A DNA stretch of 32,000 nucleotides from Candidatus Thorarchaeota archaeon. GTDB lineage: Archaea > Asgardarchaeota > Heimdallarchaeia > Hodarchaeales > Hodarchaeaceae. How positions within the stretch are numbered: the first letter of the stretch is position 1; every line of letters starts with the position of its first letter. A model generated the notes under the pieces. The model was not told where the DNA came from. It was given only the letters and a program-made list of their open reading frames with translations, and ran no database searches. The DNA lies in the NCBI GenBank assembly GCA_048882505.1, contig JBHLRO010000006.1, positions 133,640-165,639 on the forward strand. Reading direction: 5' to 3'. The position numbers were made by a program, and so were the translations under genes. This document shows positions 1 to 28,060 of the stretch, piece after piece.

Positions 1-82
1 GCGCGTCCCGTTCCCAAGATCCAGGTTTGTAATCTAAAACGGGTTCATTCTTGGGTTTGGGGACTTTATAGATTCCTAACAA
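1..82 (-). CDS. pruA: 5' fragment of 1-pyrroline-5-carboxylate (glutamate gamma-semialdehyde) dehydrogenase; runs off the window's left edge
   Basis: Manual translation from TTG at 82 gives MLGIYKVPKPKNEPVLDYKPGSWERDA, matching the VPxPxNEPVxxYxPGSxER N-terminus of P5C dehydrogenases. A GGTGA SD lies just upstream. Not in the ORF track. Confidence 0.75.
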   Translation of the reverse strand, partial: MLGIYKVPKPKNEPVLDYKPGSWERDA

Positions 83-382
83 TATTTATCACCCATTTCT
101 CCGGCGATTTTTTCTTTACGGTTATTTACTCTCTGCCAAGAGCTGATGAGACGGGTTTTTTGAGTCAATCCTCCGAACTTCGCTATAAAAATAGGTTTTG
201 GATTTGTCCGAAAGAAAATTTTTTTGTATCCGGTTTTATATGACCTATTTGAAGAGTTAATCGATTTATTTTTGAGGAACTGCTCTAGATCTGTATTTCA
301 AACCAGATAAAAGACCTGGATTTACCTGAAAAGAGAATACCAAGTCTGAAGTTGAGTCTTCATACTTCTTGGCCGGAAAACT

Positions 383-13312: not shown

Positions 13313-14182
13313 TTATTGTAGCTTTGCTGCATCTCTTGCCAATTGTGGACTTTTGTTTGGGTACAGGGTCTTTCCCCTATAGTATTTATCTAGAAGAATA
13401 AATATCAACCAAGCAACTCCTGTTGAAAATAAAACGTCTGAGGCATAATGTGCTCCTGCAACAACACGTCCAAGTGCAACGATCACTCCCCATGTTAAAA
13501 CGATGACCGTTACCAGGTAATAAATAGCTTTTTTCCTCTTCAAACGAGGCACATATAGTATTGGGAGTAGCATCCATCCCATGGCCGCGTGGCCCGAGGG
13601 AAACGAAGCATGCCCAGTCGATCCCCGTGGAAGAAACCAGGGGGTATAATCTGAATAATCTAAAGCTAGGTCTCGAAAGCGAACACGCCCCCACATGATT
13701 TTAATTACTTGTACAAATAGAAGCGGGTTCAAAACAGCCAAAATTAGAGTAAAAACAGCAAATGTTTGGAATTCATTCGATATGGTGAAATTTCCCCAGC
13801 GAATCACGACTAATGTTACTAAAACAAATGGAAAGACGATTAGAATGAGTTGGGAGTTAATTCCTCCAAATATCGCGTTGATCAAGGCGGATATCTGCCA
13901 AACAAGGCCCCCAATGACGACTGCGATTATTATAGAACTTTTTACTGTCCTAGTTTCTTTTACTGCAATGAAAACGGCGAAAATTGCTAATACAATGATA
14001 ATATTCCCTGGGATCTCTCCATACTCTGCGATGAACCTCGCCCACACTGCTTCGCTATCAACAAGGGCCATAGAAATTTCAAGATCCCAAACAGCAAAGA
14101 TGAGCGCCAGGAAACCAAAACAGGCACCAAGAAGATAGACTAAACGTTTTCCTATTGTACTATTCATCTTGGCTTTGGACAT
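13313..14182 (-). CDS. PAP2 family membrane phosphatase
   Basis: K-WGRVR (motif 1), SFPSGH (motif 2), GRVVAGAHYASDV (motif 3); about 6-7 TM. Confidence 0.9.
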   Translation of the reverse strand: MSKAKMNSTIGKRLVYLLGACFGFLALIFAVWDLEISMALVDSEAVWARFIAEYGEIPGNIIIVLAIFAVFIAVKETRTVKSSIIIAVVIGGLVWQISALINAIFGGINSQLILIVFPFVLVTLVVIRWGNFTISNEFQTFAVFTLILAVLNPLLFVQVIKIMWGRVRFRDLALDYSDYTPWFLPRGSTGHASFPSGHAAMGWMLLPILYVPRLKRKKAIYYLVTVIVLTWGVIVALGRVVAGAHYASDVLFSTGVAWLIFILLDKYYRGKTLYPNKSPQLARDAAKLQ

Positions 14183-14358
14183 GGTTAGGTCTTAAACCAA
14201 AATGGAGAATACTTATTGATATTTTTTCGTAAAAGTAGATAATTATTTTGTTGCAAACGAAAAAAACATCAAAGAAATCAAATGAAATTAACAGGAAAAT
14301 GGTTTATTAGGAACTGGGCCTACATTCGTTCTGTCAAGAGAAAAGGAGGATTAAGCAA

Positions 14359-15429
14359 GTGGTTATAACCCCACTAGATTTTCTTAGTGCTTTGGTCTTG
14401 GGAATTACAATTGGCTTGGTGTTACAAAGAGGACGTGTATGTTCTAATACTGCCTTCAGAAATTTATTATTAATCAGAAATCCCGAGGTTGCATTAGTTC
14501 TGGTTATTGCAGTTATGGTAGAGTTGATTGGTTACCAGCTATTGCAATTATTTTCACTGACCGAAATCTTTCCGGGATTTAGCATTTATTCAAATCCAAT
14601 AAGGTTCTCTTTGATTCTTATTCCTATAGGAAGTCTCTTGTTTGGATTTGGAACAGTTTTTGCGGGGGGATGTGCTGGGGGAGTGTGTTACAGGGTAGGG
14701 GAAGGATCAATTAAGTCACTCCTCGCTTTTCTTGGTTTTGGCATCGGGATTGCTGTTTTTGCCGTGGAACCCCTCCGCTCTGCATTTGCTGAAGTACAAA
14801 ATGCGACCCTTTGGACAATACAAGGTCAAACTCCTTCTCTTGAACAGATACTACCTCGGCCGATATGGACGATCGGAGCCCTAATTATGCTAGGAGTACT
14901 GGTTTACAAGTACAGGAGAACTCCTCCACAGTTACCGCATTTTCGTGAAGGATGGTCTCCTTTAATGTCCGGGCTTGTGCTTGGGGTTCTGGGTACACTA
15001 GCACGGTTTTTTTCCACGGTAGCTGGCCGTCCATTTGGGCTTTCAACGACGGACGGGATTGGGGAGCTTTTCTCAGTTGTTTCAAGCATTCTTGGAGTCA
15101 CCTCCTCTCTTTTGGGATGGGCAGGAATTATGATTCTCGGTCTTATTATCGGAGCAAGCTTGTCATCCCTTCAAATTAACGAGTTCAAAGTAAAAACTCC
15201 AAATAGGCGTGACATAATTCGGTTTTTTGGAGGAGGCCTTCTATTAGGGATTGGAGCTATGCTGGCATCGGGATGTAATTTCGGGCATATTCTGGGTGGA
15301 ATACCAGAACTTGGGATTTCCTCAGTTATAGCGTCAATATTCATGATGTTTGGTAATTGGATTTCATCATATTTGATGTATAATGTCCTTGGAGAAGAAA
15401 CTCCAGTTTCCACCCCATTATTACTTTAG
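14359..15429 (+). CDS. YeeE/YedE (TsuA-like) thiosulfate/sulfur-compound transporter
   Basis: QRGRVC, FGFG-FAGGCAGG, GAMLASGCNFGH: the three conserved YeeE cysteines; GTG start. Confidence 0.88.
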   Translation: MVITPLDFLSALVLGITIGLVLQRGRVCSNTAFRNLLLIRNPEVALVLVIAVMVELIGYQLLQLFSLTEIFPGFSIYSNPIRFSLILIPIGSLLFGFGTVFAGGCAGGVCYRVGEGSIKSLLAFLGFGIGIAVFAVEPLRSAFAEVQNATLWTIQGQTPSLEQILPRPIWTIGALIMLGVLVYKYRRTPPQLPHFREGWSPLMSGLVLGVLGTLARFFSTVAGRPFGLSTTDGIGELFSVVSSILGVTSSLLGWAGIMILGLIIGASLSSLQINEFKVKTPNRRDIIRFFGGGLLLGIGAMLASGCNFGHILGGIPELGISSVIASIFMMFGNWISSYLMYNVLGEETPVSTPLLL

Positions 15430-15592
15430 ATATGTGATAGATTAGTTCTACTCATTTAAAAATATGTTTTAGCTTTAACATTGAATAACCGATTGATTTC
15501 TGACCAGTTTAGGTCAAGGATTTGTTGTTCACGGTCTTGCTCTCTAGGATTTCGACACCAATCAGAGTTATTTTAAATTCCATCGAGTTCCC

Positions 15593-16321
15593 ATGTTAAA
15601 TGTGGAAATCCCTCCTGATATGATTGTACTTATTCCAGCAAAGAATGAAGAAACCGCCCTCGCATTCCTTCTTCCACGACTTTTGAAAAGGGTTAAACAA
15701 GTTCTCGTCGTGGATAATGGCTCTGAAGATCAAACCGCAAAGGTTGCCCGAGATGTAGGGGTCCAAGTAATAACGGAAAAGAGACCTGGGTACGGATCCG
15801 CGTGTTTGGCTGGTTTAAAATATCTTGCAAGACAACCAAACCCCCCTAAATATGTTTGTTTCTTTGATGGTGATGGACAAAGTAATGTGGCCGATATTGA
15901 TAAAGTAGCCCTTCCTGTTTTAAAGGACAGAACACCTTATTGTCAAGGGAGCCGTATGATAGATCCACAGTCTCGTAACAATCTTACCATCATAGCTCGC
16001 GTTGCAAATCGGCTGTTCGCGAAGTTTTTGTCAATGGTTTGGAAACAGCACCTAACCGATCTCGGCCCGCTTCGTGTTATAAGTTGGGATCTCCTTTCGG
16101 AACTAAATATGGCATCAATAAACTACGGTTGGACCATAGAAATGAGTACAAAGATATTAAAAATGGGGGGAGTTCCGTATCTGGAAGTTCCTGTTAATTG
16201 GCATCCACGTACTTCAGGTAAAAGTAAAATCTCTGGAAACTTTAATACCGCATTCAAAGCGGGGTCGATAATGATTTTGACGCTCCTTCGTGTACTTTTA
16301 TTTTGGAAACCTGGGATTTAA
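15593..16321 (+). CDS. GT2 glycosyltransferase, DPM1-like (polyprenol-phosphate-sugar synthase type)
   Basis: IPAKNEE, VVDNGSEDQT, RPGYGSAC, FFDGDGQ, TDLGPLR, YGWTIEM, R-SGKSKISG. Confidence 0.9.
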   Translation: MLNVEIPPDMIVLIPAKNEETALAFLLPRLLKRVKQVLVVDNGSEDQTAKVARDVGVQVITEKRPGYGSACLAGLKYLARQPNPPKYVCFFDGDGQSNVADIDKVALPVLKDRTPYCQGSRMIDPQSRNNLTIIARVANRLFAKFLSMVWKQHLTDLGPLRVISWDLLSELNMASINYGWTIEMSTKILKMGGVPYLEVPVNWHPRTSGKSKISGNFNTAFKAGSIMILTLLRVLLFWKPGI

Positions 16322-16322
16322 A

Positions 16323-17114
16323 ATGTCAATTAGGCAGGGAATCGTACTGTTTACGAAAGTACCGACCCAGGTACCAGTGAAAACGCGTTTGGCGCATTCC
16401 CAATTTCCGAAAAACTTCCAAGTTGATTTAACAACCGCGATGATAAAAGATACCCTCCTGATTTTAGATGAAGTGATGAAACACACCCTATTCACACCAA
16501 TTATCAATTATTTCCCTGAAACCAATTCTGCGCGAAATATGATAAAAAAGATCATAACAGCGATTATGGAGCATGAAAACCCAAGCTTGATGGAGAAGGT
16601 GAATCTGGTACCACAAATAGGGGATACGGTAGGTCAACGATTTTCTATCGCCATTGATAGCGCTTTTAAGGATTTAAAAATGAAATCAACGATTATTGTT
16701 GGTTCTGATACTCCCCACCTATCTCCTGCCTATATATTAAAGGGAATGGAATTCTTGATGTCGAATCCAAAAGGGCTTGTGTTGGGTCCATCTCAAAATG
16801 GAGGTTTCTACCTATTCGGAACAAACCATCCATGCCCTAGGGAAATCAGCGAGATATTTCAGAAGAACTCTATACACAATGAGTTGGGGAACCTATTAGA
16901 GTTGTTCCCCGACCATAAAGCGTGTATATTGCCGACGGTTTTTGATATTGATACGTTTTCTGATTTAAGAAACGTTTTCTCTGAGGTTTATGCGCGATCC
17001 TTTAATAATCCTAGAGAGCCAGCAAAAATGACAGCGGCGCACATGTGGTCTTTGCTTAAAACTTTGGATAAATCGATTTGGGAATCTTCGCAGGACTCCA
17101 GAACAATGAGTTAG
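16323..17114 (+). CDS. DUF2064 / TIGR04282-like (CofC-like) glycosyl/nucleotidyltransferase
   Basis: LFTKVP-VKTRLA, Q-G-VGQRF, IIVGSDTPHL, VLGPSQNGGFYL, FDIDTFSDL. The real start is probably ATG 16323, right after the upstream TAA, not 16290. Confidence 0.85.
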   Translation: MSIRQGIVLFTKVPTQVPVKTRLAHSQFPKNFQVDLTTAMIKDTLLILDEVMKHTLFTPIINYFPETNSARNMIKKIITAIMEHENPSLMEKVNLVPQIGDTVGQRFSIAIDSAFKDLKMKSTIIVGSDTPHLSPAYILKGMEFLMSNPKGLVLGPSQNGGFYLFGTNHPCPREISEIFQKNSIHNELGNLLELFPDHKACILPTVFDIDTFSDLRNVFSEVYARSFNNPREPAKMTAAHMWSLLKTLDKSIWESSQDSRTMS

Positions 17115-17124
17115 AGGAAAAACA

Positions 17125-18543
17125 ATGGAATTTACAATCGCCTTTGGAATTTGGACGTTAGGAGCTGTTATTTTCCTCATCTGTACCTTGTATTATGCTC
17201 TTGAATTAATCCCTGCGTACATTAGAAACCGTAAACAATATCAAAATCCTATTATTCTAACGGATCAGCAAATCGGTGAATTATTAAAAAAAACGGAACA
17301 AGAACTACCTATCTTCAAATTTCAAATTACAACTCGCGGTAATGAAGTTGAAGTGGTCACAAGAGGGATCGATTCCATTTATCAGATAGCACAGAATCCT
17401 TTATTCAGAAAAAACATTGAACTGCTAATAGTAACTGATTTCCAGGATGAGGTTGTTCTCTTTAACCAGTATTTGCAAAATCAGGGCATTGACATTTCTG
17501 TTGAAGTTATCGCAGTTCCTCCTGACTATCAAACTCCTAAGGATTCCCTATATAAGGCCCGAAGTCTACATTATTCCTCAGAATTCCGAGCGGCAGACCC
17601 AGGTGAAAAGCGCGCATTTGTTTTTTATTTTGATGCAGAATCCACCATATCGGAAGATGATTTCCGCCGTATTATACACTCGATACTTGTATCGCCGGAG
17701 AAGAAGATTTTTGAAGGCCCTATAGTCTATTCGCACAAATATTTTGATGCAAATCTTATAAGTCGTCAGATGGAGGCATCACGACCCTTTAATTGCTATC
17801 ACTGCGCACAAGTAATGACTAATCCTCCTCCTCTTCACCTTCATGGATCGAATTTACTTGTGGATGCGGAACTAGTATCATCGATCGGGTGGGATTCAGG
17901 AAGGCTTCCTAACGATGATCCCTTACTAGCAGAAGACTTGTATTTCGGTATGAGAGCATACAGTAGATTTGGTCGGGAGGTATTCGGATGGCATGGAGGA
18001 CTAGTGACTGAACAACCGCCATTTAGTGTCCGAGAGTCCTTTAATGCTCGTATGCGATGGATTACGGGTGCTTGGCAGGCTTTGACTCTCATAAGGAAAA
18101 ATGAAGAATTTCTCAGATTAAATTGGTTTGCACGGATTCGGTTCTTGTCTCGGTTGCGCTTCAGAATTATTGCACATGGGATAAGTTTTTTTGCTGCCTT
18201 GTTTATTATTCTCACGCTTTTGTTTGTATTAGTGCCGTCAGCTTTTCCCTTTTTAGCGATGGATGCATCTTTTATATCACCGATGCTTCGTACATTTCAG
18301 GTGACTGTTTCACGGCTAATCTTACTACCTGGAACCTTATTTTGGCTTTTCGGCATCATCAATGGATCTTCGAAAAATATTAGGTCCCTCGGGCTTACTA
18401 AAAGACAAAAAACATGGGAATATATCAAACTACTTCTTGTAACACCAATTGGAGGAGCGGTTGAGTCTTTTGCTGCCCTGTATGCCACTCTTAGGTACTG
18501 GATTGGACATCCATACCGATCCTGGGATGTAACACGTAAGTAG
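17125..18543 (+). CDS. membrane GT2 glycosyltransferase (Glyco_trans_2_3 / egghead-BRE-3-like)
   Basis: N-terminal TM, YKARSLHY, FDAE, AEDLYFG, EQPPFS-ARMRW, 2-3 C-terminal TM. Confidence 0.75.
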   Translation: MEFTIAFGIWTLGAVIFLICTLYYALELIPAYIRNRKQYQNPIILTDQQIGELLKKTEQELPIFKFQITTRGNEVEVVTRGIDSIYQIAQNPLFRKNIELLIVTDFQDEVVLFNQYLQNQGIDISVEVIAVPPDYQTPKDSLYKARSLHYSSEFRAADPGEKRAFVFYFDAESTISEDDFRRIIHSILVSPEKKIFEGPIVYSHKYFDANLISRQMEASRPFNCYHCAQVMTNPPPLHLHGSNLLVDAELVSSIGWDSGRLPNDDPLLAEDLYFGMRAYSRFGREVFGWHGGLVTEQPPFSVRESFNARMRWITGAWQALTLIRKNEEFLRLNWFARIRFLSRLRFRIIAHGISFFAALFIILTLLFVLVPSAFPFLAMDASFISPMLRTFQVTVSRLILLPGTLFWLFGIINGSSKNIRSLGLTKRQKTWEYIKLLLVTPIGGAVESFAALYATLRYWIGHPYRSWDVTRK

Positions 18544-18552
18544 GTAAATCCA

Positions 18553-19908
18553 TTGAAAACCTCAAGGCCACAATGGCGTCAAGACAGTATTTCATACGTT
18601 GGACTTGCGCTGATGGGGATCATCCTTGTTTTAGCGCTTGAAATATTGATATTGACAACCTTCCTAAAGCGCTCATCCTGGAATTTCATAATTGGATTTT
18701 TCATTCCCTTCAGTGTTTATTGCGTGATAGCTGTAGTAATCCGTCGGTATCAGAATTTGTTGGTCAAGAAAAGGTACTTCACTGTAATCCTCATGATTGT
18801 GGCATCAATAATCCAGATTCGTCTCCTATTTACTAATGCTACGCTATCTGACGATATCTATCGTTTTTTTATGGAGGGTATGGCCCTCGTAAACGGAATC
18901 AATCCCTATTCTACCCCACCCTCGGATTTTCCATCCAGTTTACAGCCTCCATTTCAATTTCTAGTGAATAATCCGGATGTTACCTCCCCGTATCCCCCGC
19001 TTACACTTTTGGTATTTGCCGTTCTCTACATGGCCTCTCTAGTTGCATCTCCAGTAATCTTTCGAGTTTTCTTTTCATTTATGTACTTAGCTACTATCCC
19101 ACTCATGGCGCACCTTCTTTCAATCTTTGATAAACCTTCTTGGCGAATCATTCTGTACGCGTGGAATCCGCTTTTGCATCTAGAGACCGGAAATGGGTCT
19201 CATTTCGACCCTCTGGTAGTGTTCGTAGTGATGTGTGCGATTTATGCTCTAAATCGTGAGAACCACTCTCTGGGAGGAACGGCCCTACTCATGGCGACAC
19301 TGCTCAAATATTATCCAATTTTCCTGATTGGCGTATATTGGCGTCAATTAGGGAGAAATGGAAGAGTAATCGTGCTTTTAGGCCTTTTTGTTTACAGCTT
19401 GTCAATTTTATTGACTCCCTCCATCATTTCTGGTCTGCTCATTTATGCTGATAGATGGTACTTCAATGCGAGCGTTATGTGGGCCTTGGTAGAATCAACT
19501 GGAACCTTTTTTGGCGCCAAAGTTGTAGTTGGAGCCATTTTCTTGGGCATTTATCTTATAATAATCTTAAAATCAGAACATAGCCCTCACATCTTAAATC
19601 CAGTGAGCGGGCTTTTTGTGTTGGCTTCATTTCTTCTCTTGCAACCTGTGTTTCATCCTTGGTATCTGTTCTGGATATTTCCCTTCGTGTTGTTAGTTGA
19701 ACCGTTAGACTATTCCTGGATCCTCCTAACCGGAACAATTATTCTATCATACCACGTATATATCAATTTTGATGCCATTGGTGTTTGGTACGAATCGGAC
19801 ATTGTTCGGATAATCGAATTTCTCCCCTTTTATGCTGGTATACTCTATATTTACCGCGAGAAACTGAAAAACATTTATCGAACCCTGTCAAAGCCACAAG
19901 GTGCTTAA
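18553..19908 (+). CDS. GT-C fold membrane glycosyltransferase (GT87/DUF2029-like)
   Basis: LSDDIYRF-EG-GINPY, YPP, YAWNPL-E-GNGSHFD, LKYYP, HPWY; about 10 TM; TTG start. Confidence 0.8.
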   Translation: MKTSRPQWRQDSISYVGLALMGIILVLALEILILTTFLKRSSWNFIIGFFIPFSVYCVIAVVIRRYQNLLVKKRYFTVILMIVASIIQIRLLFTNATLSDDIYRFFMEGMALVNGINPYSTPPSDFPSSLQPPFQFLVNNPDVTSPYPPLTLLVFAVLYMASLVASPVIFRVFFSFMYLATIPLMAHLLSIFDKPSWRIILYAWNPLLHLETGNGSHFDPLVVFVVMCAIYALNRENHSLGGTALLMATLLKYYPIFLIGVYWRQLGRNGRVIVLLGLFVYSLSILLTPSIISGLLIYADRWYFNASVMWALVESTGTFFGAKVVVGAIFLGIYLIIILKSEHSPHILNPVSGLFVLASFLLLQPVFHPWYLFWIFPFVLLVEPLDYSWILLTGTIILSYHVYINFDAIGVWYESDIVRIIEFLPFYAGILYIYREKLKNIYRTLSKPQGA

Positions 19909-19960
19909 ACAGAATAACTACGCAAACTCTAGACGTTTTAGAAAGCGTTTTCAGCTGCCG

Positions 19961-20464
19961 CTAGACCAAGAACTTCACGAGACCAGTAGGGAGTTTGTCT
20001 TTAAGCCAATAATCAATGCCGTACCACCGACCAGCTCCTGTCAAGGCACAGATCGCAAAACCCACGATCATTAAAAGGTAGGTCCAAACCCAATCTACTC
20101 CTAAGGTAGTAAAAAGCAAAACTGTCGACACACCGGCACCTACCAGAGCTCCTGGACGTGTAAACACCCCGAAAAGAACTGTAACAGAAATAAAAAGCTC
20201 CAGAAGCATCCAGCCAGGGGCCATAAGAGCGGCATTAGGAAAAACAAAATCCCTCACAATTGTATCAAGGGGAGTAACAACATGTAAAGGATCATCCAAG
20301 AAGAAACTAATGGTCCCAACGTAACCTGTGGCCGTAAATACTCCCTTCATGATGTTACTTACCCATGTCGTCAGAAAAGCAGCCCCTAGTGACAATCGGA
20401 TAAGTGCGACATACGTACCTGATACTCGTTGAGCGTTTATCTCTCGAATTGCTTGCATGGCCAT
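19961..20464 (-). CDS. DoxX/DoxD-like membrane protein
   Basis: LIRLSLGAAFL, ELFISVTVLFGVFTRPGALVG, GAGRWYGID; ATG 20464 preceded by AGGTGA. Confidence 0.75.
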   Translation of the reverse strand: MAMQAIREINAQRVSGTYVALIRLSLGAAFLTTWVSNIMKGVFTATGYVGTISFFLDDPLHVVTPLDTIVRDFVFPNAALMAPGWMLLELFISVTVLFGVFTRPGALVGAGVSTVLLFTTLGVDWVWTYLLMIVGFAICALTGAGRWYGIDYWLKDKLPTGLVKFLV

Positions 20465-20505
20465 CAATATTCACCTTTGACTTTTAATTGATTTCTTAAT
20501 TAATC

Positions 20506-20979
20506 CTACATTAACACCTTTACCCATTTTGGCAAATCCTTGGCATTAAGCTGCTCGTCAATCCCCCTAAACATTCCGGGATGGCTAAAAAGCAGGAGGA
20601 CCAATGACATAACCGCTGCAGTCCATGGAACGATCAAATCAAGAATTCCAAGACCAACTCCAGCCAATCCGATGGCAAATCCGTTGAATGTAGCTAGTGC
20701 AGCACCAGCTCGCGCCAAGGTACCTGTAAGGAGACTTAGGGATGAGATAATCTCTATACTGAGTACAATACCGAATATCAGAACCCAATTGGAAACAGCC
20801 CAGTCCATTAAGGCAGGCGGAAGAAGGGGTTCACCTGCCGCCATATCAGTGATTCGATCAAGGAAATTTGGGAATAATACTCTTCGAATAGCAGTTCCAA
20901 ACCAGATTAATCCGGTAATTAACCTTAGAGGAAATATGATGGAGTAATTCTCTGCCAAGGCAGTTTTAATAATGGGCAT
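20506..20979 (-). CDS. DoxX/DoxD-like membrane protein (tandem paralog)
   Basis: PLRLITGLIWF, EIISSLSLLTGTLARAGA, PGMFRGID; same architecture as its neighbour. Confidence 0.7.
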   Translation of the reverse strand: MPIIKTALAENYSIIFPLRLITGLIWFGTAIRRVLFPNFLDRITDMAAGEPLLPPALMDWAVSNWVLIFGIVLSIEIISSLSLLTGTLARAGAALATFNGFAIGLAGVGLGILDLIVPWTAAVMSLVLLLFSHPGMFRGIDEQLNAKDLPKWVKVLM

Positions 20980-21135: not shown

Positions 21136-22683
21136 CTATATCGCAGATGTTTCTACCCTACGAGTTCTTCTTTGGTCATATAAGACCAAAAGAAAGATAA
21201 AAATTGTTAATACCAAAGCAAGCCAGGGAGCTACAGATGAAATCAGGGTATAAAATACGTAAGCATCTCCAGGAATAGCATTCAGACCGAACGTGCCAAC
21301 AATTATGTCAGAGAAGGCATATAAGATGACAAAAATGAGGAAAAACGGTTGGACAAATTTTACCCAAAAATGCCATTTATTCCCTAATTTGAATCGGGAA
21401 GCTGTGTTGACTTCTTTTAGCGCCATCTTTTTAGGTACAAACCAACCAAACGCTATTATTGCGATAATACTACCAATTACTGAACCAGTAGCACCGACAA
21501 AAAGATCTAAATTATACAAGAAGCCACCGTCTAACGGAGATAACATTGAGGGTATAGCAAGTACCATGGTTAGGAATCCAATGACCAGATAAGCTTGTTT
21601 TCTGGATATTCCAACATTATCAACCAGATAGACGATTGTTACTTCAAATATTGCAGTCAGAGGTAGATAGGCAGCGAAGAAGAACATCAAAAAGAATATC
21701 GACATACCGATTCCTGACACTCCAATTCCCAGAGATTTGAAAACCTCCGGTATGACTCCAAAGAATAGTCCAGGTCCGAAAGTCTCTGCGTTATTCATCC
21801 CAATACCTGCCAGTGAAATAACCCCGAAAACCAATAGGACAGAAATTAAGCTGGCCACAGTATTTCCGACGAGGGTTAAGCCTGCGTTGACAGGAATATC
21901 ATGGGCGGACTTTCTTTTCATATAACTGGCATACAAAACCATGTAGGATCCACCAAGACATAAAGAGAAAAATGCTTGTCCTAATGCAGCTACGAAGGTA
22001 TAAGATGTAACTTGCTCTGTGATGTTAATGGTTGTAAGGTATCCAATAACATTAGAGAATACTCCAGGTTGAAGAAAAACGAGAATGGTCAGAAAACTAA
22101 CACTGCCATAGAAAATTGGAACCACGAATTTACTGATCTGCTCAATCCTTCGGGTTCCGTGAAGCAACGGAACTGCAATTGCGAGAATGACGATAGCAGT
22201 GAAAATGAATTGTGACACGGGATCAGCCGCAACCGTGGTTTCAAAATATTCAGTACTCTGTGTTGTTAACGCAGTTAGCCGGCTATCAAACATGGCAGAG
22301 AATGCATAACGAAGAATCCAACCGATCCAAACGACGAAATAACTTCCAACTGCTAATACTATCAAAAATAGAAGAATAGAAACGACTTTTCCGCCTGGAA
22401 ATCTCACTTGATTATAGGCCCCATCAGGACCTCTTCCAGTTAATCGACCTAAACCCCATTCCGCGGTTAGAGCAGGGTATACGAAAAGCGCAGCTAGGAT
22501 AAAATAGATCCCCAGATAAGCAGCGCCCCCAAACGAAGCTACTTGATAGGGAAATCGCCAAAGAGTGCTGAAACAAACGGTCATGCCCAGCATGACAGAT
22601 ATTAGGCCGGTACGACTTTTGGTACTGAAACAATCATGGCATATTACATCCGAGGATTCGGAATTTAAGGAAGGAGAAGACAT
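21136..22683 (-). CDS. NSS/SLC6 (LeuT-like) transporter with atypical substrate and ion sites
   Basis: WRFPY-FGGAAYL-Y, AEWGLGR, GTRRIE-SK, ALGQAFFSL-LG, YASY, GPGLFF-PEVF; about 12 TM. Confidence 0.88.
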   Translation of the reverse strand: MSSPSLNSESSDVICHDCFSTKSRTGLISVMLGMTVCFSTLWRFPYQVASFGGAAYLGIYFILAALFVYPALTAEWGLGRLTGRGPDGAYNQVRFPGGKVVSILLFLIVLAVGSYFVVWIGWILRYAFSAMFDSRLTALTTQSTEYFETTVAADPVSQFIFTAIVILAIAVPLLHGTRRIEQISKFVVPIFYGSVSFLTILVFLQPGVFSNVIGYLTTINITEQVTSYTFVAALGQAFFSLCLGGSYMVLYASYMKRKSAHDIPVNAGLTLVGNTVASLISVLLVFGVISLAGIGMNNAETFGPGLFFGVIPEVFKSLGIGVSGIGMSIFFLMFFFAAYLPLTAIFEVTIVYLVDNVGISRKQAYLVIGFLTMVLAIPSMLSPLDGGFLYNLDLFVGATGSVIGSIIAIIAFGWFVPKKMALKEVNTASRFKLGNKWHFWVKFVQPFFLIFVILYAFSDIIVGTFGLNAIPGDAYVFYTLISSVAPWLALVLTIFIFLLVLYDQRRTRRVETSAI

Positions 22684-22770: not shown

Positions 22771-23682
22771 TTAAGAATTAGTACAGTTCATGCCTTCCAT
22801 TCTGCAAGTCCAACATGCCATATATCTCATTGGAAAAGCGGTTGCCGCTTCATCAAGAGTATCTCCCATACGAGCCCCTTCTTCGTTTACTAAGATTGGG
22901 CACACCCAAACTCCCTTTTCCGTTACCATACGGCATGTACTACATTGTAAGTTCGAATAATCGTAATCTACAAAGCATTCCTTTGTGAATAGTTCATGCT
23001 GTGAATAGGGTCTGCTCCGGTCCGCTTCTCTACCTATCCGTAACGGTGGTAGAATCTTTAAACGCTGTTTTGCAGGAGGGATCCCACTTTTTTCCAACAT
23101 TGTCTGGAAATCTGCTTTAACCTGCTCTAATTCCTCACTGGACCAGCTTCTCATTGCAGTTATGATGGGATTAAACCCAACTTCAACTAAGTTCTTGAGA
23201 CCACCGTTTGCCTTTATATAGGAGTTTTTACCTCTGATCAAATCGTTCGAGCGTTCGTCAGGACCATCAAATGAGACTCTAAACGTAAGAGTGAACTTTC
23301 CAGCGTCTTGAATTTTCCGTAATTGGGCGGCCCTTCTTTTTGCTATTCGGGTTGCATTTGTCAAAACGGTTGTATCAGCATGTAATAGGGATTCAGCGAG
23401 CATAGAATCGATTTCAGGGTTAATAAATGGTTCTCCTCCAGTGAAATAGATTTCCAGACGGGAGTAATTGCGAGATAGCGTGTTGTTCAATGCTCGTTTG
23501 AAAGTAGCATATCTAAGATAGGGATATCGATTTGCGGTGGGGCTTGATTCAACATAGCAGTGATGGCAGCTCAAATTACATCTACTACCCGTGAAGAACC
23601 ATAAAACGAATGAATCGAGAGTATCAGCAAGGAATGGAACCGAATAAACATTTTTTTGGGAAGTTGGATTGAGCTCGAGCAA
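22771..23682 (-). CDS. radical SAM protein (family often near DUF2064/GT clusters; ArsS-related, not clearly ArsS)
   Basis: LWFFTGSRCNLSCHHCYVESSP (CxxxCxxC), FTGGEPF, VLTNAT, RVSFDG; Cys-rich C-terminus CSTCRMV-CPIL-CWTC-C; TTG start. Confidence 0.88.
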   Translation of the reverse strand: MLELNPTSQKNVYSVPFLADTLDSFVLWFFTGSRCNLSCHHCYVESSPTANRYPYLRYATFKRALNNTLSRNYSRLEIYFTGGEPFINPEIDSMLAESLLHADTTVLTNATRIAKRRAAQLRKIQDAGKFTLTFRVSFDGPDERSNDLIRGKNSYIKANGGLKNLVEVGFNPIITAMRSWSSEELEQVKADFQTMLEKSGIPPAKQRLKILPPLRIGREADRSRPYSQHELFTKECFVDYDYSNLQCSTCRMVTEKGVWVCPILVNEEGARMGDTLDEAATAFPMRYMACWTCRMEGMNCTNS

Positions 23683-24252: not shown

Positions 24253-24825
24253 TTACTTTTTCCTTCTCTGGACTAGGGCCAGGCTAGCAATGATTAAAAG
24301 ACCAATCGCTAGTTCGAACCCAGGCGCTGGAGTACCAGGAGGATTCCCAGTCGGGTTACCCACTTTGAAATAACCCCACATCCCTGCATCGAAATGTCCT
24401 GAAAAGGAGCAGTAAAACATGATATAGGTGTCCTTATCGGGAGTTGTAAAGGTCGTGTTCCAAACACTTGTTTCTGTTCCCCCTGAGTTGCCTGTATTGG
24501 CTTCAGCGGGAAGAGGTCCTAGTACCAGATCCCCAGACTTTGGTGTGTCTGATGCAGTTGCTGAGGTTACTATCCGTTCGTCTGCCGCCACTATCAAATT
24601 ATGCCATACACCTGATTCATTGTTCCAGAATACTATTGTGTATTGTGTGTTCTTCTGTACGTCTATGGCCTTCTTATCATACAGAGTACCAGTAAGGGCC
24701 GTAATTGTGATTGTCGTCCCTTGAGTGGGTGTATTTGTTGTAGCCGAGAGATTTAGGGGAACGATTATAGATAAGAACATTATCCCCGTAAATAAGGCTA
24801 GTAAGATAACTCCTTGTTTTTTCAT
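24253..24825 (-). CDS. secreted type-1 blue copper protein (cupredoxin) with PGF-CTERM-like anchor
   Basis: Signal peptide; VWHNL (His ligand); FYCSFSGHFDAGMWG (C-x4-H-x4-M); tail PAPGFELAIGLLIIASLALVQRRKK. Confidence 0.85.
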   Translation of the reverse strand: MKKQGVILLALFTGIMFLSIIVPLNLSATTNTPTQGTTITITALTGTLYDKKAIDVQKNTQYTIVFWNNESGVWHNLIVAADERIVTSATASDTPKSGDLVLGPLPAEANTGNSGGTETSVWNTTFTTPDKDTYIMFYCSFSGHFDAGMWGYFKVGNPTGNPPGTPAPGFELAIGLLIIASLALVQRRKK

Positions 24826-25112
24826 GATATATCAATCCCATTTAGAGGTAGACTCTTTACCATTTATAGTCGTAGAAGTCGGCGTCCGTTTCTTCTTTTT
24901 ATTTATAAATTGGTTTCTTTTTTTTTTTCACAGGAAAATTGTTCTGGTGGCTGATCCGATCCGTTTTTCGAAAACCGATCCTCACTTTACCAGCAAATCC
25001 CCTATCTAATTAACCTCCCTTTATGTCCAGAGAGAAGAGAGACAGGATTTACTATATCTAATGTGGTAAGAACAGTTTATGGGTTATTGGTATAACCAAT
25101 GGATTCAATTGA

Positions 25113-25133
25113 TAAAAAAAAGAAAAAGGGGGG
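25113..25133 (-). terminator. U-rich putative terminator after the polyferredoxin gene
   Basis: The minus strand reads CCCCCCTTTTTCTTTTTTTT about 10 nt after the stop. Confidence 0.45.
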
Positions 25134-25143
25134 AATTAGGGGT

Positions 25144-27393
25144 TTAAACCTGGCTCGATAATGCATAGAGTCCCAAGAACGTGAAAAGAACAATCCAGGT
25201 CACTACTGGGACCAATATCTTGAGACGATCTTTTTTATCGTGCTCCAAGTTCAATATTAGGGTTCGATGCGTGGCGAAAATCGAAGCAGCCATTCCACCA
25301 AGAACTGCGATCAACCGGATAGCAAAGCCCGCCTCGGCTGGTATTAGGGATCCTAGTTCCAAGTTATGGAAACCTATCAAATATAATGGATTTAGTAGGT
25401 AAGCTATCGCGACCGGGAAGACAATAGGATTGTCAAGAGCCAGCGTGCTTCCATTATAGATTGCATTATTCATGAAGTATCCGCCAAATGGATCTGCTAG
25501 GATACCAAGAATTGCGGGAGTATGTTCGAAGATCCTTACCACCCAAAATGCAAAGTGGAGTGAGAGTCCGACTGGAATCACAGAATAGCTAAATAGGTTG
25601 AATAGATCTTGGACATTTTTCTTTTTCTCGTTCTTCACATATTTTCTAGTGAACAATAAAACTAGAAAGAATAGGCCTATAGGCAAGAGAAATGCCGCTG
25701 TCAAGAACCAGGCGAATGTTGTGATAACCTGTGCAATGAATGCATCACCAAATACCCCGGTAAGCCCAGCGATTGACGAGTCTAAGGTGGTACGAACAAA
25801 AGGTATACTTGGCATGATTACCGCTAAGGTTAAGCCGACAAGCACCGCCGCCAGACCAGATTGATCAAATCGTCGTTTTTTCGGATTGTACGTGTCTACG
25901 AATGGTGCACGAATATTTAACGTAATGTTGTCATACGGACAGCTCTTAAAACATTCGGTACACATAATACACCCAAGGTTTCGATCCATGATCATTGGAA
26001 ACTGTTCCATTGGACATGCGTATCCGCTATCCCATGTTGGAACTGTCAATTTTCCCTTTCGATCCAGAACTTCAGTCTCTGTACGTCCACGAAGGCAGTA
26101 TTTCCCCGTACACAGCTTACATACATCTAAATCCTTGTTACGGACTTCAATGGTTCCTGCCATTCCGTAGGTTCCGATCAATCCTCCCAGCGGGCAGACG
26201 TACATACAGAACGCCCGACGTTCGTAGAATAGTCCTAGGATAATTGATAGCCCTATAAGAATGACTATGAAGAGAGCCGTGAAGAGTGGATTGACAAACA
26301 TACCAACAATAAAATCAAACATCATGATGCCTGCAAAGAGGCCTGTTGTGATCCACATGGAGGTCAGTCTCTTGGGATATTTACGTTTTGGATCCGTATC
26401 TCCCTTCAATGGTTTTCCAATAACCATAGCTTGCGTAAACTCTGGAATAGCGTAACCGAAGTACGCTCCAACGTAGAGCCCGAAGAGAATTGCCAAGAGC
26501 CAAAAGATTCCAACTATGGTATCGATTATCCCTGTACCCGCGACTATTGTTGTAAAAACGCGTGATAACAAGACCACGGGGACAAATGCTAAGAAGATAA
26601 GATAATCAAGGATTCCTTGAACCAAATCCGTACTGATGGCTCCAGTTCCCATTAATTCCTCGGCAGAAAGTCCTCCAAACAATCCAATGGTAATGCCCAC
26701 AATCAATGCACTGCCAACTCCTAGGAAGAAAGCCATTACAAAACGAATGATTCGGCCCGAGGTTGAAACAGATTCTGGCAGGTGGGTTCTATGGGCCCAT
26801 TCGCCAATACAACCGAGTGGACATACCGTACACCACACACGGCCAAGAAACATGAACGTTATAATCATGCCTGGCCACCAGATGTTCCAGGTCAGAAATG
26901 TGGCACCATTAATTAACGCCGAGTCTTTTGCATAAATGTAACCGCCATATCCGTATATACCGAAGATCATTACCAGGACAAAGAATACGGCATTAGGAAA
27001 CTCTAACACCCATTGAAACCAACGACGTTTGATTAGCCAGCTTCCAAACCGATTATCGGTCAATGAAAACTTCCAGTATCCACCAAATCGACGTTTTTCC
27101 AAGGATTCCTTATCATCAGGGGAGCGGTACAGGAGAAACAAGGTCAAACCCGCAAAAAGAGCGGGTAGGACGAGCGTTGGAAGGAGCGTATTGGCTATTA
27201 GGCCACCAAGATCTCTGCCAAGCAATCCAATGAGATCGAATCCAAAGAATGAAATAGTGTCTTTTAACATGTACAGACTCAGATACGATACCCATACTAA
27301 TGCAATGACGAAGATTAGGAGCGAGAAATTCTTTGAGTTTTGCCCTCTTAGTTGAGCAAAGGTAGCGTCTTCTGACGTTACTTCTTTTTGCAT
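25144..27393 (-). CDS. integral membrane polyferredoxin (4Fe-4S binding; NapH/MauN/NosR/CcoG-like)
   Basis: RVWCTVCPLG and RAFCMYVCPLGG (CxxxCP), CKLCTGKYC, ACPMEQFP, CIMCTECFKSCP; many TM helices. Confidence 0.88.
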   Translation of the reverse strand: MQKEVTSEDATFAQLRGQNSKNFSLLIFVIALVWVSYLSLYMLKDTISFFGFDLIGLLGRDLGGLIANTLLPTLVLPALFAGLTLFLLYRSPDDKESLEKRRFGGYWKFSLTDNRFGSWLIKRRWFQWVLEFPNAVFFVLVMIFGIYGYGGYIYAKDSALINGATFLTWNIWWPGMIITFMFLGRVWCTVCPLGCIGEWAHRTHLPESVSTSGRIIRFVMAFFLGVGSALIVGITIGLFGGLSAEELMGTGAISTDLVQGILDYLIFLAFVPVVLLSRVFTTIVAGTGIIDTIVGIFWLLAILFGLYVGAYFGYAIPEFTQAMVIGKPLKGDTDPKRKYPKRLTSMWITTGLFAGIMMFDFIVGMFVNPLFTALFIVILIGLSIILGLFYERRAFCMYVCPLGGLIGTYGMAGTIEVRNKDLDVCKLCTGKYCLRGRTETEVLDRKGKLTVPTWDSGYACPMEQFPMIMDRNLGCIMCTECFKSCPYDNITLNIRAPFVDTYNPKKRRFDQSGLAAVLVGLTLAVIMPSIPFVRTTLDSSIAGLTGVFGDAFIAQVITTFAWFLTAAFLLPIGLFFLVLLFTRKYVKNEKKKNVQDLFNLFSYSVIPVGLSLHFAFWVVRIFEHTPAILGILADPFGGYFMNNAIYNGSTLALDNPIVFPVAIAYLLNPLYLIGFHNLELGSLIPAEAGFAIRLIAVLGGMAASIFATHRTLILNLEHDKKDRLKILVPVVTWIVLFTFLGLYALSSQV

Positions 27394-27409
27394 AAATTTT
27401 CCACCTTTA

Positions 27410-28060
27410 TTATGCTGTTGTTACTGTTACAAATCCGTTCATCTGCCCATGCCCAAGTCCACAGTAGAAGTTGCAAGAGAAGAGATGGTTGCCGATTTGA
27501 TCAACCGTGGGTTTTGCGTAGAATGATATCTCTTTTAGCTGTGGTAGATTCAGTACGACAGGATTACCAAAGTAATCTTGGAAGGTTGGGACGATTTCAA
27601 AACCGTGATCTGTATCAAGTGCCTTGATTATAATTTGGTATACGGTGCCGACCTTGAGGTCGATGTTGTAATATGCTGCCGTCTCTGGATAACCCACCCC
27701 TTCAGGAATTGTTTCGTACTTGGATACGTTTATCGGAATGGATTCCTCGGTCGTGGCATTTTCAATGCGTGTGACGTTAAAGGTCCACGGTTTGAGCTGT
27801 GCTTCAACGTGTATGACGTAATCTATTGGCTCGTCTGGTACTTCTGTTCCTAGGTTACTTAATAGGAGATTCGGGGTAATTCCCATAGCCCCACCTAGTA
27901 ATATTCCGCTTAGCAAAGCGGCTGGCACTAAAACGACTATAATCTCCTTCGGTTTCCAGGAATTTCGAATCGCTGCTACTAGGACACCAATGATTAAGAG
28001 GCTAGATAGTATCAGGAGCAAAATGTTATGATCTAGCGGTATCCAGCTGGTTTCTGACAT
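27410..28060 (-). CDS. membrane-anchored CuA cupredoxin (cytochrome c oxidase subunit II-like domain), stand-alone
   Basis: Two N-terminal TM helices, AQLKPWTF, DTDHGF, SCNFYCGLGHGQM (complete H/C/C/H/M CuA ligand set). Confidence 0.85.
   Translation of the reverse strand: MSETSWIPLDHNILLLILSSLLIIGVLVAAIRNSWKPKEIIVVLVPAALLSGILLGGAMGITPNLLLSNLGTEVPDEPIDYVIHVEAQLKPWTFNVTRIENATTEESIPINVSKYETIPEGVGYPETAAYYNIDLKVGTVYQIIIKALDTDHGFEIVPTFQDYFGNPVVLNLPQLKEISFYAKPTVDQIGNHLFSCNFYCGLGHGQMNGFVTVTTA

Follow-up and report, generated by a model that had tools for sequence, protein, structure and literature searches.

A heimdallarchaeial clade of LeuT-fold transporters with a rebuilt, cysteine-bearing central site and a linked radical SAM gene

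Transporters that belong to the NSS (neurotransmitter:sodium symporter) family, including the eukaryotic SLC6 proteins, are among the best-studied secondary carriers, and their mechanism is taught around two Na+ sites (Na1 and Na2) and a Gly-or-Asp switch. Prokaryotic reference systems for the family are MhsT of Bacillus halodurans and LeuT of Aquifex aeolicus, both of which are Na+/amino-acid symporters. The column of LeuT Gly24 acts as the Gly/Asp switch between amino-acid and amine carriers, and replacement of the Na2 serine by alanine inactivates a bacterial NSS (PMC10707687). In Nramp, another LeuT-fold carrier, metal is bound by an i/i+3 residue pair on the unwound transmembrane helix (TM) 1 together with a methionine on TM6 (PMC6398981). 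Here, we describe an NSS transporter gene, whose product is designated P0001, on a 32,000-nucleotide stretch of DNA from Candidatus Thorarchaeota archaeon (assembly GCA_048882505.1, contig JBHLRO010000006.1, positions 133,640 to 165,639; hereafter ‘the window’), together with the adjoining gene of a radical S-adenosylmethionine enzyme (rSAM). The features discussed are listed in Table 1. P0001 belongs to a clade that is NSS by homology and yet, judged by its sequences, lacks the tested signatures of Na+-coupled amino-acid and amine symporters. No account of such a clade was found in the literature searched, nor any paper on Asgard NSS.

The open reading frame (ORF) of the transporter is translated without internal stops, and P0001 contains four cysteines in total, C15, C18, C37 and C242, of which C37 is encoded at 22573-22575 and C242 at 21958-21960. 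The motifs, codons, N-terminal CHDC and directly upstream rSAM gene quoted in a preliminary description of this DNA are all present. P0001 scores 84 bits (E 1.2e-23) with the family profile PF00209 (SNF, TC 2.A.22), whose cut-off is 27, and it falls marginally below the cut-off of the NCBIfam Na_transp subfamily model (49.2 vs 50). In a sequence search of the PDB the best match was MhsT (E 3e-27), with LeuT at 1e-19, and the homology spans the whole core. An AlphaFold2 model, calculated with 117 homologues as input, reached a predicted local distance difference test score (pLDDT) of 90.3 and a predicted template modelling score (pTM) of 0.90. Foldseek aligned this model to MhsT with a TM-score of 0.87 and a root-mean-square deviation of 3.0, and to LeuT and dDAT with TM-scores of 0.75-0.79. 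The model contains 12 TM helices, and as in MhsT and LeuT two of these are broken, TM1 at residues 36-37 and TM6 at residues 241-246. Since C37 and C242 lie within these non-helical breaks, they are predicted to belong to the pair of unwound hinges from which the central site of this fold is built. Both the family profile and the LeuT fold with discontinuous TM1 and TM6 place P0001 among the NSS, of which it is the sole representative in its genome. The extracellular gate is intact, with R43, D393 and F239 (the LeuT Arg30/Asp404 pair and Phe253 lid) invariant in the clade, and a further gating residue, E75 (LeuT E62), is retained.

Residues were mapped to LeuT by pairwise HMMER alignment to LeuT chains, and a MAFFT alignment of 117 NSS reproduced the same columns. 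On TM1, G20, V23 and R30 of LeuT are kept as G33, V36 and R43, and N21, A22, G24, L25, G26 and N27 are replaced by M34, T35, C37, F38, S39 and T40. On TM3, Y108 and I111 correspond to F116 and W119. On TM6, Q250 and F253 are kept as Q236 and F239, with S240, C242 and G245 in place of T254, S256 and F259; on TM7, N286 is N274 and E290 is S278; on TM8, A351 is A337, and T354 and S355 are L340 and P341. All substitutions that had been read by eye in the preliminary description (G24>C, G26>S, N27>T, Y108>F, S256>C, F259>G and T354/S355>L/P) were thus reproduced. Relative to MhsT and LeuT, the clade keeps the outer gate of R30/D404 type, F253, E62, Q250 and Y47, and it differs by fixed changes at N21 (M), A22 (T), G24 (C), G26 (S), N27 (T), Y108 (F), S256 (C), D/N286 (N), E290 (S) and S355 (P). 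It further has an additional TM12 and a CHxC motif instead of the N-terminal gate arginine.

The consequences of these replacements were considered site by site. The cradle that holds the substrate carboxylate in LeuT, Gly24-x-Gly26 and the Tyr108 hydroxyl, reads C37, S39 and F116, where at each position at least 99% of sequences elsewhere have Gly, Gly and Tyr, respectively; at the Tyr108 column, all 93 other NSS have Tyr and all 24 clade members have Phe. The loss of carboxylate recognition that had been proposed for this protein is therefore supported by the replacement of both the glycine pair and the tyrosine hydroxyl. The aspartate of biogenic-amine carriers is not found at the G24 column either, which holds Cys37, and among about 270 NSS a cysteine at this column is exclusive to the clade. 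At Na2, the two consecutive Ser/Thr hydroxyls on TM8 (LeuT T354/S355) are replaced by L340 and P341. At the S355 column, Ser is shared by all 93 other NSS and Pro by all 24 clade members, in agreement with the proposed loss of this site through the Ser355 side chain, whereas Leu at the T354 column is shared with an otherwise canonical sister clade and is not specific. Na1 is altered as well: of the Asn27 and Asn/Asp286 side chains, the former is replaced by T40, and the latter is N274, which is Asn as in LeuT but Asp in the relatives (Asp in 91 of 93 other NSS, Asn in 24 of 24 clade members). A weaker Na1 site may persist. At the S256 column, NSS outside the clade have S or G, and Cys occurs in only two outliers, both with a canonical TM1. 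The enlarged pocket that had been deduced from F259>G and T354>L was not supported as a special feature. Gly at the F259 column is found in 8 of 8 sister-clade sequences and in 34 of 85 others, and is common in ordinary NSS, and Leu at T354 is shared as described above.

A different resemblance is found at the anion site of the eukaryotic carriers. The pattern Tyr-Gln-Ser-Asn-Ser forms the chloride site of SLC6, and the corresponding residues of the clade (Y60, Q236, S240, N274 and S278, for Tyr47, Gln250, Ser/Thr254, Asn286 and Ser290) are all invariant, with no acidic residue at the Na1 positions. LeuT-E290S binds chloride (PDB 4HOD), and this entry is among the Foldseek matches of P0001. 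The clade thus represents prokaryotic NSS with the full SLC6-type chloride-site pattern, and it may be anion-dependent. Like SERT, DAT and GAT-1, it has Asn at LeuT 286, Ser at LeuT 290, the Tyr/Gln/Ser residues and no fixed acidic charge at Na1. However, SLC6 proteins keep the Gly/Asp switch, Tyr108, Asn27 and the Na2 Ser/Thr pair, all four of which are missing from the clade, and its best matches are bacterial-type NSS, so it is not specifically related to SLC6.

At the N-terminal gate column, where at least 85% of other NSS have Arg, P0001 has C18. A CHxCF motif is present in about two thirds of the clade (P0001-P0015/P0025). Several database gene calls start at the Met of MLGMT (M31), with CHxCF encoded in frame upstream (L003, 4082-4174; L004, 6911-7000), which indicates that these gene calls are truncated.

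A search of 5.8 billion proteins yielded about 28 sequence clusters of the clade at 49-95% identity, and those with names all stem from metagenome-assembled genomes of Heimdallarchaeota or Thorarchaeota. Beneath the clade, identity falls to 37% or less, in canonical NSS. Every clade member carries GMT[VI]CFSTLWRFP on TM1 and GQ[AG]FFSLCLGG on TM6, and M34, T35, C37, S39, T40, F116, C242, N274 and P341 are invariant in the 24-28 members compared. The conservation of the cysteine pair in homologues is thereby confirmed. In a profile search of 1.84 billion representatives clustered at 50% identity, one full-length clade representative scored 848 bits and clade fragments 155-502 bits, and the nearest non-clade sequence scored 299 bits; the gap from 848 to 299 bits means that no intermediate forms are known. 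A search of the ESM Atlas with the transporter returned ordinary SNF clusters only. A search of sequencing runs found the DNA in sediment metagenomes, with no RNA run among those listed. In the orthologue of Heimdallarchaeota LC_2 (L006, 7001-9030), the transporter is called as two overlapping ORFs of 424 and 262 amino acids (aa). This frameshift stems either from an error in the assembly or from a gene that is broken.

In a maximum-likelihood tree the clade was monophyletic with a support of 100 in the SH-like approximate likelihood ratio test (SH-aLRT). No other internal branch of the NSS tree is as long as its stem, at 1.16 substitutions per site, and its inner branches are 0.3 or shorter, which suggests a burst of change followed by purifying selection. 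The location of these changes was evaluated with 60 alignment columns showing a conservation of at least 85% among the 93 NSS outside the clade, of which 11 belong to the central substrate site (S1), Na1 or Na2 by LeuT mapping and 49 do not. The clade had a fixed replacement in 8 of the 11 site columns (T35, C37, S39, T40, F116, C242, N274 and P341), compared with 2 of the 49 others (V68 and G287; Fisher p 2.6e-6). M34 is also clade-specific, other NSS having Ser, Val or Ala at this position. Together with the invariance of the replacing residues at 49-95% identity, this demonstrates that the substitutions exceed chance and are aimed at the binding site.

The transporter is also linked to the rSAM gene, which ends 87 nucleotides upstream of the transporter start on the same strand. 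The same adjoining order, rSAM followed by transporter, occurs in the genome G070. In two further loci (L002 and L003), with rSAM orthologues of 59-61% identity, the genes adjoin in the reversed order, and they lie within one cluster, 6-7 kb apart, in Heimdallarchaeota LC_2 and L050. In L049 of genome G050 they are 8 kb apart. The distribution of both genes was surveyed in 400 Asgard species genomes, including all 83 of the class. The transporter clade was found in four genomes (G000, the source of the window, G070, G045 and G050), and the rSAM in the same four and in G047, a 650-contig assembly. As the genomes with the pair are kin, these represent about three independent lineages, not four or five. 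Within the genus of the window, either gene was present in only 2 of 22 genomes, several of the others being 96-99% complete. The shared distribution indicates that transporter and rSAM form an accessory unit that is co-inherited. The linkage, which the preliminary description had proposed from this one locus, is real by both neighbourhood and genome distribution.

The rebuilt site and the co-inheritance with the rSAM make a cargo other than an amino acid very probable. We hypothesize that P0001 is a working secondary transporter of the NSS fold that was re-specialised from Na+/amino-acid symport to a soft, thiol-reactive, non-amino-acid solute tied to an rSAM pathway, and would give this reading a probability of roughly 45%. 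In a single burst of change on the stem of the heimdallarchaeial clade, nearly all residues with which other NSS hold the alpha-carboxylate, Na1 and Na2 were replaced, the TM1 break gained Met34 and Cys37 (i, i+3) and the TM6 break gained Cys242, and all of these were frozen thereafter. The thiols of C37 and C242 and the thioether of M34 would line the central site and bind a soft solute, candidates for which are a soft metal ion and sulfur, selenium or arsenic in a reduced form, and this cargo would be required for, or made by, the rSAM-dependent pathway. Coupling would take place without the canonical Na2 site. With the Tyr-Gln-Ser-Asn-Ser residues next to Na1 and no acidic residue there, a bound chloride-like anion or a thiolate might balance a cation. 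In most members the N-terminal gate arginine has given way to the cytosolic CHxC, and this motif may take up the substrate or hand it over. For metal binding in a LeuT-fold carrier, the geometry of Nramp, which matches M34/C37 and C242, offers a precedent. A more specific proposal, that the NSS fold has been turned into a carrier of soft inorganic or organo-element cargo (either a metal ion or a compound of reduced S, Se or As), with direct binding by Met/Cys/Cys on the former Na1 and head-group position, hand-off to or from the cytosolic CHxC, and supply of the rSAM pathway by the carrier, is possible but doubtful when taken as a whole.

Several observations weigh against the re-specialisation for a soft solute. 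The transporter occurs without an rSAM gene within 7 kb in four loci (L001, L004, L005 and L007), one of which belongs to genome G045, and the rSAM occurs without a nearby transporter in L051, in L052 and in G045, where it is on another contig; the small number of independent lineages among the related pair-bearing genomes also limits the weight of the co-inheritance. That the sulfurs of M34, C37 and C242 face one cavity is predicted from homology and secondary structure, and a substrate-binding role of the cysteines is likewise a prediction, as a buried pair could be structural. The rSAM family is uncharacterised and names no substrate. The preliminary description had placed both cysteines in the substrate pocket and derived a thiophilic substrate from this. 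Their location in the S1 region is consistent with the modelled TM1 and TM6 breaks and with their invariance, and on the sequences available a thiophilic substrate seems a reasonable suggestion.

The alternative that has to be taken most seriously, although we consider it unlikely, is an ordinary nutrient carrier for an amino acid, amine or osmolyte, in which the substitutions retune specificity or the coupling ion (Na1 only, H+ or Cl-) and the cysteines have no chemical role in binding. P0001 is after all a clear NSS homologue with intact gates and the only NSS of its genome, TuriSERT shows that an NSS can bind non-canonical substrates without the expected residue, and several of the rSAM-free contexts hold genes for aminotransferases, a pyridoxal-phosphate-dependent decarboxylase, aspartate kinase and prephenate dehydrogenase. 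Retuning does not readily explain why the Na2 serine, at which a change to Ala kills function in a bacterial NSS, was replaced jointly with the Asn/Asp pair of Na1 and with all three determinants of carboxylate binding, all of these being frozen afterwards, nor why Cys at the switch column is exclusive to the clade, and it leaves the co-inheritance with the rSAM unexplained. Less likely again is a transporter of soft metal ions, e.g., Cu(I), Zn, Cd or Fe(II), that has converged on Nramp, with the metal at the position of Na1 and the substrate head group, M34, C37 and C242 as ligands, CHxC for hand-off and the rSAM as a secondary matter. As in Nramp, the unwound TM1 would contribute two ligands spaced i/i+3, and the unwound TM6 a sulfur ligand. 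An extra Met is found at position 342 in 18 of 24 clade members, an N-terminal Cys-His-x-Cys is present, and the fixed negative charge at Na1 is gone. The only plastocyanin-type cupredoxin of the genome and a CuA protein are encoded just upstream, and genes of copper proteins also neighbour the pair in L003 and L049, and in L052 the rSAM. However, the polyferredoxin of this copper module does not share the distribution of the pair, the cupredoxin, as a surface protein, would be loaded extracellularly, CHxC is missing in about one third of the clade, and the tight link to the rSAM would have no explanation. Nramp itself has no family-level homology to the clade and uses Asp/Asn/Met, compared with Met/Cys/Cys here, where metal binding is hypothetical.

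The two cysteines might instead form a structural or regulatory pair, i.e., a disulfide between the TM1 and TM6 hinges, a redox switch or a target of rSAM modification, which would make P0001 a redox-gated carrier or a sensor. Both are invariant and are predicted at adjacent hinges of one bundle, the rSAM resembles enzymes that act on cysteines of proteins or peptides (anSME, SkfB and SuiB), and in L003, as in bacterial relatives, the rSAM gene has a thioredoxin-fold gene behind it. Since a disulfide accounts neither for the joint loss of the Na1, Na2 and carboxylate ligands nor for the added Met34, and since bacterial relatives of the rSAM occur without the transporter, we regard this explanation as highly improbable. 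The trivalent organoarsenical named as a possible cargo in the preliminary description found no specific support, and a carrier for it in an arsenosugar-like pathway (ArsS-type rSAM, DUF2064 and GT2) is the least probable of the explanations considered. It is true that DUF2064 and GT2 genes occur in the associated cluster, with the DUF2064 protein aligning end to end with the TIGR04282 profile, that language-model features place no differently named family except ArsS close to the rSAM (0.95, a lead only), that the genome has an ArsM above cut-off, and that pairs of an rSAM and a permease are known for arsinothricin (PMC8552651). Even so, the rSAM reaches only 48.5-48.8 bits with the ArsS model, whose cut-off is 300, lacks DUF3641 and has another best family match. 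The DUF2064 protein scores 77.4 bits against a cut-off of 134 and GT2 31.7 against 182. The ArsM gene lies on a different contig, and the glycosyltransferase cluster is found in 12 of the 22 genomes of the genus, with the pair in 2.

If P0001 carries a soft inorganic or organo-element species, as in the more specific proposal above, it would be the first member of the NSS with a cargo that is not an amino acid, amine or osmolyte, as well as the first to lack a Na2 site. As a natural and constrained subfamily without the Na2 serine, the Na1 Asn/Asp pair and the carboxylate cradle, and with Cys at the switch, the clade lends itself to testing to what extent the fold can be adapted to new uses and by which ion, if any, it is driven. 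Heimdallarchaeia are the closest archaeal relatives of eukaryotes, and the co-inheritance of the transporter with an uncharacterised rSAM and a YeeE/DoxX/glycosyltransferase cluster points to an undescribed pathway in this class. Once identified, the substrate of the transporter would probably name a precursor or product of that pathway.

Table 1. Coordinates of the transporter, its motifs and the neighbouring genes in the window
Feature	Window position	Residues	Strand	Remarks
NSS/SNF (LeuT-fold) transporter, P0001	21136..22683		-	515 aa; 12 TM; member of the Asgard ‘Cys-Cys’ clade
N-terminal cytosolic CHDC	22630..22641	15-18	-	C18 in the N-terminal gate Arg column (LeuT R5 equivalent)
TM1 motif GMTVCFSTLWRFP		33-45	-	Present in the translation
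TM1 longer motif MLGMTVCFSTLWRFPYQ	22543..22593	31-47	-	M34, T35, C37, S39, T40
TM3 GSYF	22336..22347	113-116	-	F116 at LeuT Tyr108
TM6 motif GQAFFSLCLGGSY	21943..21981	235-247	-	C242 (LeuT S256); unwound segment
TM7 N274-S278	21850..21864	274-278	-	Asn for Asp of MhsT-like NSS (LeuT N286); Ser at LeuT E290
TM8 AAYLPL (within FAAYLPLTAI, 336-345)	21658..21675	337-342	-	L340, P341
Partner rSAM enzyme	22771..23682		-	303 aa; PF04055; Cys-rich twitch/SPASM-like C-terminal domain
4-TM membrane protein, 157 aa	20506-20979		-	Downstream of the transporter; no family match
DoxX, 4-TM	19961-20467		-	Pfam E 3.6e-5
Cluster of YeeE/TsuA-like (14359-15429), GT2, DUF2064, GT2_3 and MptA_B-like GT-C genes	14359..19908		+	Pfam and NCBIfam; converges on the operon

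Downstream of the transporter, the 157-aa membrane protein is hydrophobic, rich in Gly, Ala and Leu and of DoxX-like size. It has 90% identity to its counterpart in G070, and it was not found near the pair in lineages other than G070. DoxX adjoins the rSAM in L006, L042, L050 and L052, and the YeeE, GT2, DUF2064, GT2_3 and GT-C genes surround the rSAM in L006, L048, L050, L051 and L052. The rSAM is in fact usually located in this glycosyltransferase (GT) cluster in Heimdallarchaeia. Taken as a whole (window 13313-20979 and the same five loci), the heimdallarchaeial cluster comprises YeeE, GT, DoxX and rSAM genes in an order that is shuffled between lineages, often with an Amidohydro_1 gene. 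Its GT2 resembles polyprenyl-phosphate-sugar synthases, and the YeeE/TsuA-like protein is of a sulfur-compound importer type; the cluster looks like an undescribed rSAM-dependent glycoconjugate pathway with an importer for a sulfur compound. In the YeeE/TsuA thiosulfate importer, a central constriction lined by conserved cysteines relays the sulfur oxyanion. The protein encoded in the window shares the rSAM neighbourhood with the transporter and is unrelated to it in fold and family, so that it offers only an analogy for a Cys-lined transport site. The GT cluster was rejected as an obligate partner of the transporter, since 10 of the 12 genomes of the genus with GT2_3 have the cluster alone.

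A copper module is encoded near the locus (window 24253-28060), comprising a cupredoxin, a 749-aa NapH-like polyferredoxin and CuA. The cupredoxin, of the Heimdall-CTERM type, is the only match to PF00127 (plastocyanin-type) in the 4.3-Mb genome. Full-length orthologues of the polyferredoxin were found in 4 of the 83 genomes of the class (G000, G070, G079 and G054), and shorter relatives in 7 more. It was rejected as a strict third partner, as these 11 genomes include G079 and G054, which have neither gene of the pair, and it was not found in G045. Membership of the locus in the arsenosugar system (TIGR04167/TIGR04282/TIGR04283) was rejected as well, the rSAM, DUF2064 and GT2 proteins all being under the curated cut-offs. 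The ArsM of the genome is encoded outside the window (G000, contig C32, 21216-22070) and scores 295 bits against a curated cut-off of 263; two near-cut-off paralogues are present on contigs C10 and C13, and none of these genes is linked to the locus.

The structure of the rSAM was modelled with a pLDDT of 95.6. Comparison with solved structures gave generic twitch/SPASM relatives only, the nearest being BlsE, SkfB, anSME, SuiB and EpeE at a TM-score of about 0.6. Five cysteines of its C-terminal domain are invariant. Besides Asgard archaea, Nitrospinota, Brocadiales and others have members of the family, at 42-45% identity, and no paper was found on Rv1681-type rSAMs or on DUF2064 together with an rSAM. 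In the bacterial relatives (Nitrospina and others), the rSAM stands in a conserved row of genes consisting of a Mur-ligase-like gene, a gene for a protein of about 380 aa, the rSAM, AhpC/TSA and UPF0182 (L043, 5806-6702; L044, 7001-7879). This other conserved context contains no NSS, and the bacterial relatives were therefore discarded as a clue to the substrate. The AhpC/TSA gene, of thioredoxin fold, also follows the rSAM in L003 (7479-8153). In G050 (L049, 6843-10102), a PNP_UDP_1 phosphorylase gene and an Amidohydro_1 gene precede the rSAM, and Amidohydro_1 also flanks it in L050 and L051. The amidohydrolase and the PNP-family phosphorylase resemble salvage enzymes for 5'-deoxyadenosine and methylthioadenosine (MTA), which might indicate a similar role here.

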